Positions 6,256-11,464 of a stretch of DNA of 11,464 nucleotides are shown here, piece by piece; within the stretch, counting starts at the first letter, position 1; every line of letters begins with the position of its first letter. Location of the stretch: IMG/VR virus record IMGVR_UViG_2663763286_000004, positions 1-11,464 of that record; one strand, written 5' to 3'. The notes beneath the pieces were generated by a model. The model saw nothing but the letters and a program-made list of their open reading frames with translations. It did no database searches and had not been told where the DNA came from. A program made the position numbers and the translations under genes. This stretch comes from a virus (Duplodnaviria; Heunggongvirae; Uroviricota; Caudoviricetes).

Positions 6256-7299
6256 GTGAAAGCCGTAATTACTCCCTTTGTACAAAAAGAGCTTGGCGTC
6301 GCCACATTCAAAGTGGATCAGGAAGTCAGAAAGCTGGTGGAGGCTGGCCGTAAATTTATTATGGAGCCGGTGCCGCGTGAGTTAATCGAGCACATGGACG
6401 ACGGCCTCGTTGTTTCCGAGCAAACTATGGCAACAAATGAGGCGTTGCAGCCGTTTTTTAACAGCGATGAACTGTTTCGCCGTATTGGTGGAATTGACTC
6501 GCTGGTGGCGTGGTTGCGCAGGAAAGAGGGGCAATGCCAGGCCGCAGATCGTAGCTGGTGTGACAACCATATTGTCTACGCTGAACGAGACAATAGCGCG
6601 GTGTTGTTGTGCTGGCATCACGATAACCATTACCGGATGCGTGGTTTTAATGAGCTGAAAGAAACGCTGCATAATAATCGCGTTAACTGGATACTGGATG
6701 TCGCCCGTCAGGAAATGGGGCTTTCAGATGGCCATGATTTAAGTATTCAGGAACTGTGCTGGTGGGCTTTCATGCGCAACATGATGCACCTGATGCCGGA
6801 AGAAGTTTGCCGTATATCAATAAATAAGATGAAAGCCGCAACGCAGGATAGCGGACCTCTGAAAGAGGCGGATATTCGCCCGTATGACGATCGCGCTACA
6901 GCATATGTTCAGATGATGGAAGAACGCGCCGCGCCGATGCGTGCAAAAGTATGCCCTGTGGATGTTGACTCCGACCCTGGCATGGCGCATTTCAAAATAC
7001 CAAAACTGCAATCGCTAAAATTACCTGAGTACATGGACTTTGTTGCTTCCCGTCCATGCTGTGGGTGTGGAGCGGCGGGAGCTGGCGCTCACATTACGCC
7101 TTATATCGTTCGTCATAGTCGATTATGCGCGCATGACATTTACGCAATTCCTCTGTGCCAGTCATGCCAGCGTGATATTGAGCGTGACCGCGATAATTGG
7201 GAGAAGACGCACGGCAGGCTGGCGATGCATCAACGATTGTTCTTTGATTACGCGCTTGGAGTCGGCGCTATCACAAGTCACTCGTCGAGCGTTAGATAA
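6256..7299 (+). CDS. Post-doc region protein (347 aa), Cys/His-rich with possible zinc-binding C-terminal motif
   Basis: GTG start with AAAGGTG upstream; C-terminal CCGCG ... [28 protein letters not shown] cluster; synteny with P1 pdc gene between doc and lpa. Confidence 0.55.
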
Positions 7300-7300
7300 A

Positions 7301-7317
7301 ATTGCTCTAATGTATTG
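7301..7317 (+). promoter_or_regulatory. C1-repressor-type operator overlapping the -35 of the lpa promoter
   Basis: ATTGCTCTAATGTATTG matches the P1 C1 operator consensus ATTGCTCTAATAAATTT at 14/17; putative promoter TTGCTA(7315-7320)-N16-TATTAT(7337-7342). Confidence 0.55.
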
Positions 7318-7387
7318 CTATTTCTTTAATCGAGGGTATTATATTCGTCGTTGATTAGTTGACATGGGCTAATCAGTAGGTGACAGG

Positions 7388-7840
7388 ATGTTACTTAACT
7401 GGCAGGGACGCCACTTCATGGAAATAAATCACTCACGAATTACATCGTATGAGATTGCGGATTACATGATCCGCACTAAATCTCTTCTATCAGCGAAAGA
7501 ACTCGCAGCAATCCTTGAAAAGGAATACCCGCATCTGGATGTCGATAAGCGCGATGTTTATCTGCGCTTAAAGGCTATCGCTGTGTCTAAGTATTCGTCT
7601 GTTTTGATTGATGACAGTACACGCCCACGTAGATTTCAGATCCACTCTCTGAATCCTGAATTCTTTCGCCGTAGCCGCGCTCCGCGCCGGTTTGATGAAA
7701 AACTCCAGAACGAACTCTATATGACGCAGGACGAAAAGGAACGCCGGGAGCACCAGCCTTGGGTAATGGCGCGTCAACTTTTCAATAAGGTGGCCCGTCA
7801 GCACCGTCATTACGGTAATGCCACATCCGCACGTATCTGA
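7388..7840 (+). CDS. lpa: Lpa, late promoter activator (150 aa; alternative start ATG 7418)
   Basis: Position between the pdc genes and pacA, C1-operator-controlled promoter upstream and small basic protein, all as in P1; sequence not independently verified. Confidence 0.7.
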   Translation: MLLNWQGRHFMEINHSRITSYEIADYMIRTKSLLSAKELAAILEKEYPHLDVDKRDVYLRLKAIAVSKYSSVLIDDSTRPRRFQIHSLNPEFFRRSRAPRRFDEKLQNELYMTQDEKERREHQPWVMARQLFNKVARQHRHYGNATSARI

Positions 7841-7850
7841 TTGATTGCTT

Positions 7851-7868
7851 GCCCGTTCCGGGCCTTTT
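7851..7868 (+). terminator. Short hairpin GCCCG-TTC-CGGGC followed by CTTTT, 10 nt after lpa stop
   Basis: 5-bp GC stem plus T-run; weak intrinsic terminator or attenuator ahead of the pacA promoter region. Confidence 0.35.
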
Positions 7869-7925
7869 GACATGTGACTTTCGTTACCCTCGCGTCAAAA
7901 AGAGTTTTTACGAAGGGAAGCATAA

Positions 7926-9119
7926 GTGACCTGGGACGATCACAAGAAGAATTTTGCTCGCCTGGCGCGAGATGGTGGTTACACCATCGCACAGTATGCC
8001 GCCGAGTTTAATCTTAACCCTAATACTGCACGTCGTTATCTCCGTGCCTTCAAAGAAGACACCAGGACAGCGGACAGCCGCAAGCCAAATAAGCCAGTCA
8101 GGAAGCCACTAAAAAGCATGATCATTGATCACTCTAATGATCAACATGCAGGTGATCACATTGCGGCTGAAATAGCGGAAAAACAAAGGGTTAATGCCGT
8201 TGTCAGTGCCGCAGTCGAGAATGCGAAGCGCCAAAATAAGCGCATAAATGATCGTTCTGATGATCATGACGTGATCACCCGCGCCCACCGGACCTTACGT
8301 GATCGCCTGGAACGCGACACCCTGGATGATGATGGTGAACGCTTTGAATTCGAAGCTGGCGATTACCTGATAGATAACGTTGAAGCGCGGAAGGCCGCGC
8401 GCGCTATGTTGCGTCGGTCCGGGGCCGATGTTCTGGAAACCACTATTCTGGAAAAGTCTCTTTCTCATCTCCTTATGCTGGAGAACGCCAGGGATACGTG
8501 TATTCGTCTGGTGCAGGAAATGCGCGATCAGCAAAAAGACGATGATGAAGGGACTCCGCCTGAATATCGTATCGCGAGCATGCTAAACAGCTGTTCCGCG
8601 CAGATAAGCAGCCTGATCAACACCATTTACAGCATCCGGAATAACTATCGAAAAGAAAGCCGGGAGGCGGAAAAGCACGCTTTATCTATGGGGCAAGCTG
8701 GCATTGTTAAGCTGGCATACGAACGAAAGCGTGAAAATAACTGGTCAGTGCTGGAAGCAGCTGAATTCATCGAGGCGCATGGCGGAAAAGTGCCGCCCCT
8801 GATGCTGGAGCAAATCAAAGCCGATCTGCGTGCTCCTAAGACCAATACCGATGATGAGGAAAGGCAAACAGCCGTCGGTGGCCCTTCTCTTGAAGATCTG
8901 GACAAAGTTGCGCGAGAACGGGCCGCCAACCGCCGCGCCGATGCCGCATTGTGGATTGAGCAGCGTAGGGAAGAAATCGCCGATATCGTTGATACAGGCG
9001 GTTATGGAGATGTTGATACTGAAGGTGTATCAAACGACCCATGGCTGGAACAAGACCTGGACGAAGACGAGGAGGAAGACGAAGAAGTTACCCGCAAGCT
9101 ATACGGGGATGATGATTAA
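7926..9119 (+). CDS. pacA: PacA, small terminase/pac-recognition subunit (397 aa)
   Basis: GTG start with GAAGGGAAG RBS; contains the pac hexamer array within its coding sequence; acidic C-terminus (DEDEEEDEE); size matches P1 PacA. Confidence 0.9.
8119..8277 (+). other. pac packaging site: seven TGATCA/G hexamers (four at 8119-8158, three at 8249-8277), each carrying a Dam GATC site, flanking a central cleavage region
   Basis: TGATCA at 8119, 8126, 8138, 8153; TGATCG at 8249; TGATCA at 8261, 8272. Span 159 bp, the 4+3 arrangement described for the P1 pac site. Confidence 0.85.
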
Positions 9120-10612
9120 TGGCCAGAAGTTGCGTAACGGATCCACGTTGGCGCGAGCTGGGGGCGCTATATCGTTATGACTGGATTGCTGCCGCTGATG
9201 TTTTGTTCGGCAAAACACCTACCTGGCAGCAGGATCTGATTATTGAGTCTGTGCAGGAACAGGGTAGCAAGACATCTGTTTCGTCTGGTCACGGTACCGG
9301 GAAATCAGACATGACTTCTATCATGATCATGTTGTTCATAATCATGTATCCCGGTGCCCGCGCCATTATCGTTGCGAACAAAATTCAGCAGGTAATGACC
9401 GGTATATTCAAGTACATCAAGATAAACTGGGCTACTGCCACCAGCCGTTTTCCATGGCTTGCTGATTATTTTGTTCTGACAGAAACCGCTTTCTATGAGG
9501 TTACTGGTAAAGGTGTATGGACTGTAGTACCGAAGGGCTTTCGTCTGGGAAGTGAAGAAGCTCTCGCCGGTGAACACGCAGATCATCTTCTGTATATTAT
9601 CGATGAAGCCTCCGGTTTCAGTGATAGAGCTTTCGGTATCATCACTGGTGCTCTTACCGGACAGGATAACCGCATCTTATTACTGTCACAGCCTACACGC
9701 CCAAGCGGCTATTTCTACGATACTCACCATAAACTGGCCAAGCGTCCTGGTAACCCTGATGGCGTTTATACGGCGATCACGCTTAACAGTGAGGAATCAC
9801 CGCTGGTAACGCCAGCATTTATCAAAATGAAGCTGGCGGAGTACGGCGGGCGTGATAACCCTATGTACATGATTAAGGTACGCGGACTATTCCCTAAATC
9901 ACAGGATGGCTTCCTTCTTGGACGTGATGAGGTTGAACGTGCGACGCGGCGGAAAGTCAAGATTGCCAAAGGATGGGGCTGGCTTGCATGTGTGGACGTT
10001 GCTGGTGGTACGGGACGGGATAAGTCCGTTATCAATATCATGATGGTGTCCGGCCAGAGAAATAAACGCCGTGTAATCAACTATCGAATGCTGGAATACA
10101 CAGACGTTACAGAAACGCAGCTTGCCGCCAAAATTTTCGCAGAATGTAATCCTGAGCGATTCCCAAATATCACCATAGCGATAGACGGCGATGGGCTGGG
10201 TAAAGCAACGGCGGATCTGATGTACGAGTATTATGGTATTACCGTACAGCGTATACGCTGGGGTAAAAAGATGCATAGCCGTGAAGATAAGAGCCTGTAC
10301 TTTGATAAGCGTGCTTATGCCAACGTTCAAGCCGCAGAGGCCGTAAAATCTGGTCGTATGAGACTGGATAAGGGTAATGAAACTATTGAGGAAGCGTCGA
10401 AAATCCCTGTAGGGATTAACTCCGCAGGTCAATGGAAGGTGATGAGTAAGGAGGATATGAAGAAAAAACTCAACCTGCACTCACCAGACCATTGGGATAC
10501 ATATTGTTTCGCTATGCTGGCGGATTATGTTCCCCAGGATGAAGTGCTTAGCGTCGAAGACGAAGCGCAGGTTGATGAAGCTCTGGCATGGCTTAATGAA
10601 TGTTTGCTCTAA
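9119..10612 (+). CDS. pacB: PacB, large terminase subunit (497 aa)
   Basis: Walker A SGHGTGKS and Walker B-like [10 protein letters not shown]; 1-nt overlap with pacA stop (TAATG). Confidence 0.9.
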
Positions 10613-10750
10613 TAAATTGTGTTTTTTAATTACCGATGTTACATTGAACCTGACCTCTTGCGCCTTGAGGCATTTTCGGTTTATGCTTATCAGGCACCTC
10701 ATTAAAACGGGTGCCGGGATTGGCCTCCCGCTTAAGTCTAAGGCGATACA

Positions 10751-10772
10751 GACGCCGCTCGCGTCTTTTTTT
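10751..10772 (+). terminator. Intrinsic terminator-like hairpin GACGC-CGCTC-GCGTC followed by T7
   Basis: 5-6 bp GC-rich stem and seven consecutive T; lies 140 nt after pacB stop and just upstream of the c4-like RNA. Confidence 0.45.
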
Positions 10773-10800
10773 GTATCGGCGTACACGCACACCTCTACAA

Positions 10801-10880
10801 TGGTGGGCTGTATGGGGCTACCTTCGGGTAGGCTGGTTACCTTGGACGCCAGTAAGGCCAACTCCGTACAGTCCACCGCC
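10801..10880 (+). ncRNA. c4: c4-like antisense repressor RNA (immI type), tRNA-like fold
   Basis: 11-bp closing stem 10802-10812/10867-10877, internal hairpin CTACC-TTCG-GGTAG and CTGG/CCAG stem; loop CCUUGGACG and downstream AGGCCAA are complementary to two sites in the flanking sequence, one covering the icd SD. Exact ends uncertain. Confidence 0.6.
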
Positions 10881-10937
10881 AGCAAGATTGGTCTCTTCTG
10901 CGGTGGTTACATACCAACGTCTAAGGAGGCTGCCAAT

Positions 10938-11159
10938 ATGGCTACTATCCCTACCCCAACTCATCCTGAATTTATCTGGCGCTTTTACTCCTGCCAAAAA
11001 CGTCACTATCACTTCGTTATTGCACCGACAGAAGATGAGGCCCGCTCTCAGCTTCCTGACGCCCCATGTATTTTCTCTGCTCGCTTTTCTACCGATTTGC
11101 GCAATTCTCTCAGTTACTGGAGCCTCCCTGTTAACGCTTCTGCTCAGGAGGGGTTATGA
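10938..11159 (+). CDS. icd: Icd-like host cell division inhibitor (73 aa)
   Basis: Strong SD TAAGGAGG 8 nt upstream; MATIPTPTHPEFIW... resembles Icd-like proteins as recalled; stop overlaps ant start (ATGA), as in the P1 icd-ant arrangement. Confidence 0.55.
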   Translation: MATIPTPTHPEFIWRFYSCQKRHYHFVIAPTEDEARSQLPDAPCIFSARFSTDLRNSLSYWSLPVNASAQEGL

Positions 11160-11464
11160 GAACGTCATTAGTCACCCGTGAAGAGATGATCGAGGCAATT
11201 GAACAGCACACTGCCTGTATCAGTACCAGGGATATACCGGGCGTTATTGCCAACTACTTCATGATCACCAAACAACTTTACCGGAGAAAGGACAAGAACG
11301 CGGTTCACCGTATCCTGTTGTCTGATATCCGCGAATACCTGCTCGAACAGGGTCATCTGAATTACGCAACCGTCGCAGCCGAAGCACGCAAGGAGGCACA
11401 CAGAATGAAAGCAACTAACGTTAAATCAGAAAAAATTCATGCACCTTCAGTTCAGGAATCGGAG
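11156..11464 (+). CDS. ant: Antirepressor Ant (Ant1-type), 5' part only, running off the window; internal in-frame start at 11405 with its own strong SD (Ant2-type)
   Basis: SD AGGAGG before ATG 11156; open frame to the window end (103 codons); second SD AAGGAGG 8 nt before in-frame ATG 11405, matching the nested ant1/ant2 organisation of P1 immI. No sequence identity verified. Confidence 0.5.
   Translation, partial: MRTSLVTREEMIEAIEQHTACISTRDIPGVIANYFMITKQLYRRKDKNAVHRILLSDIREYLLEQGHLNYATVAAEARKEAHRMKATNVKSEKIHAPSVQESE

Follow-up and report, generated by a model that had tools for sequence, protein, structure and literature searches.

A probable immI-type c4 antisense RNA and antirepressor operon, with its own specificity key, in the pacB-c1 interval of a P1-like plasmid-prophage

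The stretch of DNA analysed here (the window; 11,464 nucleotides (nt), positions 1 to 11,464 of the IMG/VR virus record IMGVR_UViG_2663763286_000004) belongs to a P1-like (Punavirus) plasmid-prophage. Its genes run phd, doc, pdcA, pdcB, lpa, pacA and pacB, followed by a module with a match to the c4 antisense RNA family, sites complementary to that RNA, a homologue of the P1 gene icd and the 5' part of an antirepressor gene (Table 1). As pacB and c1 lie only 24 nt apart in P1, the window module is an insertion relative to P1. Very probably, positions 10603-11464 are an immI-type immunity and antirepressor operon, a paralogue of the c4-icd-ant operon of P1 that is sited between pacB and c1 and would act through the translational mechanism described below. 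The c4-type immunity switch itself is well understood; what is new here is the key (the specificity allele), the location and the presence of a second copy in the genome. Established in this analysis are the match to the RNA family, the fold, the complementarities with their covariation, and the gene homologies. The regulatory region (10690-10945; 256 nt) is 100% identical to Escherichia coli plasmids such as pO111_2 of O111:H- 11128, and the closest phage record, vB_EcoM-673R5 (hereafter 673R5), shares 97.9% identity across 10600-11464.

An earlier note, made from the letters of the window, had proposed a c4-like antisense RNA at 10801-10880, and the Rfam scan and RNA folding that it suggested bear this out. 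The C4 family (RF01695) matches 10796-10883 over the whole model (1-87 of 87) with 75.9 bits against a gathering cut-off of 45 (E = 8.5e-14). The minimum free energy fold is the three-way junction of the Rfam consensus, with a closing stem of 17 base pairs (bp) and two hairpins; at -41.6 kcal/mol, against -30.5 +/- 3.2 for shuffled sequences (z = -3.5), it was matched in stability by none of the shuffles. Both the predicted fold and the consensus place b' in the loop of hairpin 2 and a' in the single-stranded junction beside the closing stem. All 27 pairs within the RNA are kept in each of 16 homologues (100% paired), and 12 of them have changed on both sides. Of the span proposed earlier, the 3' end is kept, while the 5' end is more likely 10802, as judged from structural homology to the 77-nt c4 annotated in P1. 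The RNA shows a tRNA-like closing stem and an unpaired 3' GCC(A) tail, and by analogy with P1 we infer that the mature c4 comprises about 10802-10880 and is excised from the operon transcript. An alternative hairpin, formed by the 3' strand of the closing stem and a segment downstream (Table 1), is likewise 100% paired in the 16 loci, with three of its seven pairs changed on both sides. It excludes the mature c4 fold and is possible in the unprocessed transcript only. P1 has a comparable alternative hairpin with one mismatch, as judged by eye.

All six elements through which this RNA could meet its targets lie where the earlier note had placed them. The loop element b' pairs with b2 through eight Watson-Crick pairs and one central G.U, and its nucleotides 10840-10847 pair with b1 through seven Watson-Crick pairs and one G.U, the same G.U as with b2. 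The junction element a' complements a1 perfectly and a2 with one G.U. The proposed nine-nt b pairing stands in its first 8 bp, which are conserved; the ninth pair, G10848-C10918, is unpaired in 12 of 16 relatives, so the conserved b helix is of 8 bp. As also proposed, b2 reaches into the ribosome-binding site of icd: the Shine-Dalgarno (SD) sequence AAGGAGG (10923-10929) shares four nt with b2 and stands 8 nt before the icd ATG at 10938. Over the full length of the window's + strand, ordered a-then-b sites spaced 5-30 nt apart occur exactly twice (10720/10736 and 10888/10919), and these directly flank the c4 RNA, one on each side. Dinucleotide-shuffled windows held a mean of 0.01 such ordered pairs, and shuffles of the two flanks produced one in 2 and 3 of 20,000 trials. 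By duplex energy the RNA's own targets are best (b', -14.5 and -15.3 kcal/mol; a', -8.6 and -11.3 kcal/mol). With stem nucleotides included, non-specific foreign duplexes reached -6 to -10 kcal/mol, and duplex energies were not used for orthogonality.

That the targets are real is shown by covariation. Related loci were gathered by Icd protein search and by DNA similarity; the Icd scan of the genome collection yielded three loci, and the viral collection was more productive. In a joint MAFFT alignment of P1-type and isrK-type leaders b1 fell out of register, and the two groups were therefore analysed apart. The isrK-type alignment (n = 16) comprises the window, P13374, SfV, RCS47, phiP27, Stx1_14744, D6, Stx2_yecE and eight viral-contig loci. 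Between leader and c4 (a1:a' and b1:b'), 99.6% of the alignment cells are paired and 11 of the 15 pairs have changed on both sides; between c4 and the downstream sites (b':b2 and a':a2) the figures are 94.9% and 11 of 16. When the partner was shifted by 1-3 columns as a register control, pairing dropped to 26-52% and covariation nearly vanished. Together with the internal structure of c4, the three structures hold 34 compensatory pairs. All six elements are also matched, in a different alphabet, in 16 loci of the P1 type, namely P1 itself, the canonical immI of 673R5 and 14 loci from viral contigs.

The keys formed by these elements are modular. In P1/D6-like elements, 68 isrK-type loci were typed; their a element reads UUGGCCU, UUGGAAC or UUGAGAC, their b element GUCUAAGG, GUCAAAGG or GCAAAAGG, and five a/b combinations were seen. 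P1-type loci have UUGACAG or UUAGCAG as a and GUUAGUG, GUACAUG, ACUUACG or ACGAAUG as b, and more keys are found in lambdoid phages. The elements a', a1 and a2 vary in concert from one related locus to the next, as do b', b1 and b2, which bears out the expectation of the earlier note that the pairing residues define the immunity specificity. The key of the window, a UUGGCCU/AGGCCAA and b GUCUAAGG/CCUUGGAC, would be its specificity determinant.

Table 1. Features of the c4 module and of the genes before it (positions are those of the window).
Feature	Position	Strand	Description
c4 antisense RNA	10802-10880	+	predicted mature RNA of ~79 nt; RF01695 match 10796-10883; ends from the P1 c4 annotation
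b'	10840-10848	+	CCUUGGACG, i.e. CCUUGGAC(G); loop of hairpin 2
a'	10855-10861	+	AGGCCAA; single-stranded junction
a1	10720-10726	+	UUGGCCU; complements a' perfectly; covaries in 16 loci
b1	10736-10743	+	GUCUAAGG; pairs with 10840-10847; covaries with b'
a2	10888-10894	+	UUGGUCU; pairs with a' including one G.U; covaries
b2	10918-10926	+	CGUCUAAGG; overlaps the icd Shine-Dalgarno sequence
Alternative hairpin	10873-10906	+	CCACCGC (10873-10879, 3' strand of the c4 closing stem) with GCGGUGG (10900-10906); a2 in the 20-nt loop
IsrK-type leader RNA	10694-10771	+	hairpin 1, hairpin 2 (a1 in loop), single-stranded b1, intrinsic terminator
Leader intrinsic terminator	10750-10771	+	AGACGC-CGCUC-GCGUCU and U run; from terminator scan and 3' hairpin of the isrK model
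C1-repressor operator-like site	10603-10619	+	TTTGCTCTAATAAATTG; 15/17 match to the P1 operator consensus
Putative C1-controlled promoter	10617-10645	+	TTGTGT-17 nt-TACATT; counterpart of P1 P2c4/P51a; alignment only
icd	10938-11159	+	73 amino acids, 222 nt as in P1; homologue of the P1 cell-division inhibitor
Antirepressor gene, 5' part	11156-11464	+	continues beyond the window end; start overlaps the icd stop (ATGA, 11156-11159)
pacA	7926-9119		gene of the P1-like window
pacB	9119-10612		gene directly before the module

The genes downstream of c4 are those expected of an immI operon. The icd product matches phage_ICD_like (NCBIfam NF033153, 46.4 bits) and can be aligned with P1 Icd from end to end, and many residues are identical as judged by eye (no alignment statistic). 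The N-terminal 93 amino acids of the antirepressor are 61% identical to P1 Ant1, and an internal in-frame start at 11405, behind an AAGGAGG, lies 249 nt from the first start, which is the exact offset of ant2 within ant1 in P1. The full-length homologue in 673R5 ends in an ORF6N domain, unlike the C-terminus of P1 Ant.

Upstream, the left edge of the module is a C1-operator-like site that overlaps the pacB stop codons; 0.05 matches to the operator consensus with up to 3 mismatches are expected per window. The site aligns with P1 Oc4 (Op51) and lies 117 nt 5' of a1, compared with 115 nt in P1, and the region from operator to leader aligns with the Oc4/P51a/P51b control region of P1. The end of pacB in P1 itself (...AATGAATAA) is without operator-like sequence. 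The site is a candidate C1 operator upstream of the putative operon promoter, which C1 may control. A second C1-operator-like site, ATTGCTCTAATGTATTG at 7301-7317 with 3 mismatches, follows the pdcB stop upstream of lpa (7388-7840) and is positioned as Olpa/Op94 in P1.

Between the putative promoter and c4 lies a leader that the Rfam family isrK (RF01394) matches with 60.8 bits against a cut-off of 50; c4-a1b1 (RF03163) stays below its threshold in the window. For the 673R5 copy, a multi-source scan listed no isrK among the matches at the gathering threshold, though the window copy scores as given. The leader of P1 scores 51 bits with RF03163 ('a1, b1 targets of C4 antisense RNA') and 35 bits with isrK, and the Gifsy-1 locus of Salmonella, discussed below, scores 79.3 bits with isrK, 48.1 with c4-a1b1 and 69 with C4. 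Given that isrK and c4-a1b1 both match the leaders of P1 and Gifsy-1, the two Rfam families describe one element. In Rfam the two overlap yet belong to no common clan.

The immI operon of P1 and P7, with its c4 antisense RNA, a1/b1 and a2/b2 targets, icd and ant1/ant2, was reportedly described by Citron and Schuster in 1990. The window follows this plan closely, from the C1 operator and promoters through a1, b1, a terminator-like hairpin, c4, a2 and b2 with the SD sequence to icd and an overlapping ant with a nested start. The order a1/b1, c4, a2/b2, icd, ant and the spacing reproduce the annotated P1 immI, which agrees with the P1/P7-like a/b and a'/b' logic seen by the earlier note. Start to start, a1 and b1 are 16 nt apart in the window and 14 nt in P1, a2 and b2 are 31 and 29 nt apart, and the ATG follows the end of b2 at a distance of 12 and 11 nt, respectively. 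The two c4 RNAs share their fold, in which a' and b' occupy homologous positions. The window and P1 differ in their keys (a, UUGGCCU in the window and UUGACAG in P1; b, GUCUAAGG and GUUAGUG) and in the leader, which in the window is of the IsrK type. The location is different as well, the P1 operon lying between sim and kilA/repL, and genomes of this kind also have a canonical immI beside the window-type module.

This coexistence is evident in 673R5, which has two C4 genes, one in a window-type module and one in a canonical immI (sim, c4-a1b1, C4, ant1, kilA, repL). The canonical c4 (41813-42021) has the key a UUAGCAG and b ACGAAUG, unlike that of the window-type module in the same genome and with no match to it. 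The plasmid pO111_2 likewise carries a P1-type module besides the window-type one. Since both 673R5 and pO111_2 have an additional P1-type immI, the window element is a second paralogue of immI, and its key does not match. As the two keys differ, the circuits should not cross-talk, an expectation of orthogonality based on sequence difference only. At least 80% of the module query is covered in 272 PLSDB plasmids, and the region is matched in 342 of 5426 complete E. coli genomes, with at least 99% identity in 132 records. In the literature on P1-like plasmids the insertion between pacB and c1 has been called just 'two short orfs and an antirepressor', and no RNA is mentioned for it in PMC6906374.

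On pO111_2 (locus 3516-4729), IS1203 sits just 3' of icd and ahead of the annotated antirepressor gene, which is thereby cut off from the c4/icd control region. In IMGVR_UViG_651053023_000001, two divergent P1-type c4-icd copies about 2 kb apart have a common a (UUAGCAG) and different b. The icd locus of IMGVR_UViG_2609459791_000005 is identical to the window in b2, SD sequence and icd, with leader and c4 replaced by unrelated sequence; the junction lies just upstream of b2, and icd and ant there would be without a cis-encoded repressor. Elsewhere in 673R5, downstream of the repL region, 45474-45648 matches the sok antitoxin RNA of the hok/sok type (Rfam, 89.7 bits).

The same arrangement is found outside P1-like elements. 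The Gifsy-1 isrK locus of Salmonella (IsrK, 'orf45'/STnc1160 and anrP) has the isrK and then the C4 family in the same order, with a1 in the loop of IsrK hairpin 2 and b2 overlapping the SD sequence of the downstream antirepressor gene. Its sequence was read against the numbering of Hershko-Shalev et al. 2016 (PMC4825925). By that numbering G28 and G31 lie in a1 (U26-U32, UUGGCGU) and C162 and C159 in a' (A158-A164, ACGCCAA), the AUG at A107 stands on the 5' border of C4, 'orf45' corresponds to C4 with the a2/b2 region, and STnc1160 is the c4 homologue. In NC_010392 (34076-34316, minus strand), 'orf45' coincides with the C4 RNA (69 bits) and a2/b2. The published compensatory mutants G28A/C162U and G31A/C159U (PMC4825925, Table 1D, Fig 4) are exact a1:a' pairs and therefore provide experimental support for a1:a' pairing in a homologue, and a processed RNA of ~80 nt, STnc1160, has been seen (PMC4825925). 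Gifsy-1 differs from the window in being a lambdoid prophage with no icd, the antirepressor start following directly after b2, and in its key (a UUGGCGU, b AUCACCG). In the published model STnc1160 is not taken for a c4 RNA (PMC4825925), and Hfq binding of IsrK and its trans-activation of the downstream antirepressor are known for Salmonella Gifsy-1 only (PMC4825925). Salmonella IsrK/'orf45' and P1 c4 are one leader-plus-c4 system; a 2025 review lists IsrK and c4 as unrelated entries.

The isrK-C4 modules of lambdoid phages, Stx-converting ones among them (P13374, SfV, phiP27 and Stx1_14744), together with those of phage D6 and RCS47, share 67-80% identity with the window over the 256-nt regulatory region and have an identical architecture. 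Each has its own a/b key, and most lambdoid versions are without icd. RCS47 and D6 have icd and a different key, and the RCS47 module too lies between pacB and c1. Some GenBank records of this group already read 'C4 antisense RNA | isrK Hfq binding RNA'. In SfV, phiP27, Stx1_14744 and Stx2_yecE the coding sequence annotated as 'antirepressor' or 'transcriptional regulator' is extended 5' over the whole isrK-C4 region, and its start codon has probably been mis-called.

How the operon may work can be proposed from P1 and Gifsy-1, on whose precedent the processing, the translational block, the coupling and the decoy role are all modelled. In P1, c4 is processed by RNase P and the operon is subject to Rho-dependent polarity, as known from the literature and the P1 GenBank annotation. 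Transcription of the window operon would begin downstream of the C1-operator-like site and produce the IsrK-type leader first, with a1 displayed in a hairpin loop and b1 single-stranded, before stopping at the intrinsic terminator. A transcript that reads through would contain c4, to be excised, by analogy with P1 through RNase P at the 5' end, to give a product of about 10802-10880. The mature c4 would then work in trans, its loop b' and junction a' binding b2 and a2 on the mRNA of the same operon. As the b'-b2 helix would cover half of the icd SD sequence, icd is proposed to be left untranslated, and given that ant expression in P1 needs icd translation, the antirepressor would be off when icd is blocked. 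With its start overlapping the icd stop, the Ant1/Ant2-like antirepressor would stay off and the C1 repressor would keep the prophage silent. By this analogy we infer that c4 represses translation of icd, and thereby of ant, and confers type-specific immunity. Consistent with that proposal, the P1 GenBank annotation (NC_005856) states that binding of a2/b2 represses icd/ant translation, labels b2 'repression of icd ant translation' and gives icd as required for ant expression, and a 2021 study of P1 sums up c4 as an RNA that acts in trans to repress the synthesis of Ant (PMC8546580).

The leader adds a further component. Its a1/b1 elements probably compete for c4 and so modulate repression, and its role could be that of a c4 decoy, of a cis lock as proposed for Gifsy-1, or of a c4-modulated termination site as in P4. 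A bolder version, which we hold as quite possible though short of probable, is that the leader is a decoy in its own right, an anti-antisense RNA that acts in trans and whose a1/b1 elements titrate c4, giving a three-RNA circuit of decoy, antisense and mRNA. Under this scenario Salmonella IsrK/'orf45' would be the same circuit, misread as a small RNA acting on a small open reading frame (ORF), and P1-like plasmid-prophages with two orthogonal circuits would draw on independently reassorting a/b keys (three a and three b types for isrK-type modules, two a and four b types for P1-type modules) as a combinatorial immunity code.

Several points weigh against the proposal that c4 represses icd and ant in trans. 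Expression, processing and repression of this module are predictions from sequence. A generic sigma-70 scan gave no + strand promoter upstream of the module, and the promoter assignment, made from the alignment with P1 and the position of the Gifsy-1 IsrK 5' end only, is weak. As an intrinsic terminator lies between promoter and c4, the dosage of c4 would hinge on read-through. In the window allele each b helix includes a central G.U pair and the a2 pairing includes one too, which makes for weaker target pairing than in most relatives, and repression may accordingly be weaker or tunable. The antirepressor gene is incomplete at the window end. For Gifsy-1, the authors favour a structural switch in cis and a trans-acting IsrK over a trans-acting c4, and constitutive STnc1160 gave no relief of IsrK toxicity (PMC4825925).

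The last points lead to the alternative that survives best, in which a1:a' and b1:b' pair mainly in cis. The leader would lock the read-through mRNA, translation from an AUG at the 5' edge of c4 (10800, in the icd frame) would open the downstream start, the terminated leader would activate in trans by displacing the pairing, and c4 would be no independent trans-repressor. We regard this as unlikely for the window, though it deserves to be taken seriously. The experiments on the homologous Salmonella locus were interpreted in this manner (PMC4825925), isrK element and terminator are both present in the window as well, and its AUG (10800-10802) is positioned as A107 of orf45, within a frame that is open over 10527-11159. 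However, no SD sequence precedes that AUG, and the window has a separate icd with a strong SD sequence 8 nt before its own ATG, as in P1 and unlike Gifsy-1. In P1, moreover, trans-repression by the processed 77-nt c4 is established (P1 annotation; PMC8546580), and a2/b2 covary with c4 as strictly as a1/b1 do, for which a cis model has no need. The Gifsy-1-type and P1-type models are not mutually exclusive.

Improbable is an action like that of the CI RNA of phage P4, in which a processed RNA would pair with the targets on either side of it and so force transcription to stop at the leader terminator, downstream, or both, with no block of translation initiation. P4 CI resembles c4 in being a processed antisense RNA with complementary sites upstream and downstream (seqA/seqC) on the same transcript; it differs in acting on transcription termination, in having no icd or ant and in forming a separate family. 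The placement of b1 only 6 nt 5' of the intrinsic terminator (10750-10771) would suit such a role, and the translated region matches Pfam Phage_ASH. The Gifsy-1 authors, whose discussion also treats P4 CI RNA, raised the idea and likened IsrK to P4 SeqA (PMC4825925). Against this, b2 overlaps an SD sequence in every homologue, a terminator scan gave no terminator-like site after a2/b2, and the operon is homologous to P1 immI (icd, Ant1/Ant2), in which the primary event is a translational block.

Far less credible is the annotation of the locus as a protein gene, in which 10683-10913 would encode an 'Ash family protein' and the complementarities would be incidental. PGAP marks an 'ash family protein' pseudogene here in pO111_2 and other plasmids, flagged incomplete, and Pfam Phage_ASH (PF10554) matches amino acids 58-149 of a conceptual ORF of 210 amino acids (10527-11159), the frame being open, with 44.2 bits. 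However, two independent covariance models match the same DNA, the substitutions keep RNA pairing and not codons (34 compensatory pairs in three structures), the ORF must cross the promoter region and the intrinsic terminator, and at the Gifsy-1 locus the nucleotide sequence is conserved and the amino acid sequence is not (PMC4825925). Given the pairing-preserving substitutions and an ORF that crosses a terminator, an Ash protein-coding gene was rejected. The PF10554 match falls on the isrK, C4 and target region, and the family may largely model translated RNA genes. Finally, chance matching of short words, conceivable for elements of only 7-9 nt with G.U tolerated, can be dismissed as virtually nil in likelihood, being refuted by the shuffles (0.01 ordered a+b pairs expected and two observed, both beside the RNA) and by strict covariation in more than 80 loci.

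Taken alone, the finding that an immI-type operon lies between pacB and c1 mainly improves annotation: a phage immunity element of a textbook type is labelled in RefSeq as an 'ash family protein' pseudogene. The parts most worth following are that IsrK and c4 can be seen as one system and that the two-part keys reassort. The Gifsy-1 mutations, falling as they do on a1:a', suggest a simpler and testable reinterpretation of IsrK. The a and b elements behave as independently reassorting specificity modules and could serve as naturally orthogonal antisense regulators. The region is matched in a sizeable fraction of the complete E. coli genomes (342 of 5426), which are therefore likely to have, next to the canonical circuit, another c4/antirepressor circuit with a different key, and such a second circuit bears on superinfection immunity and on the coexistence of the P1-like plasmids that spread resistance and virulence genes.

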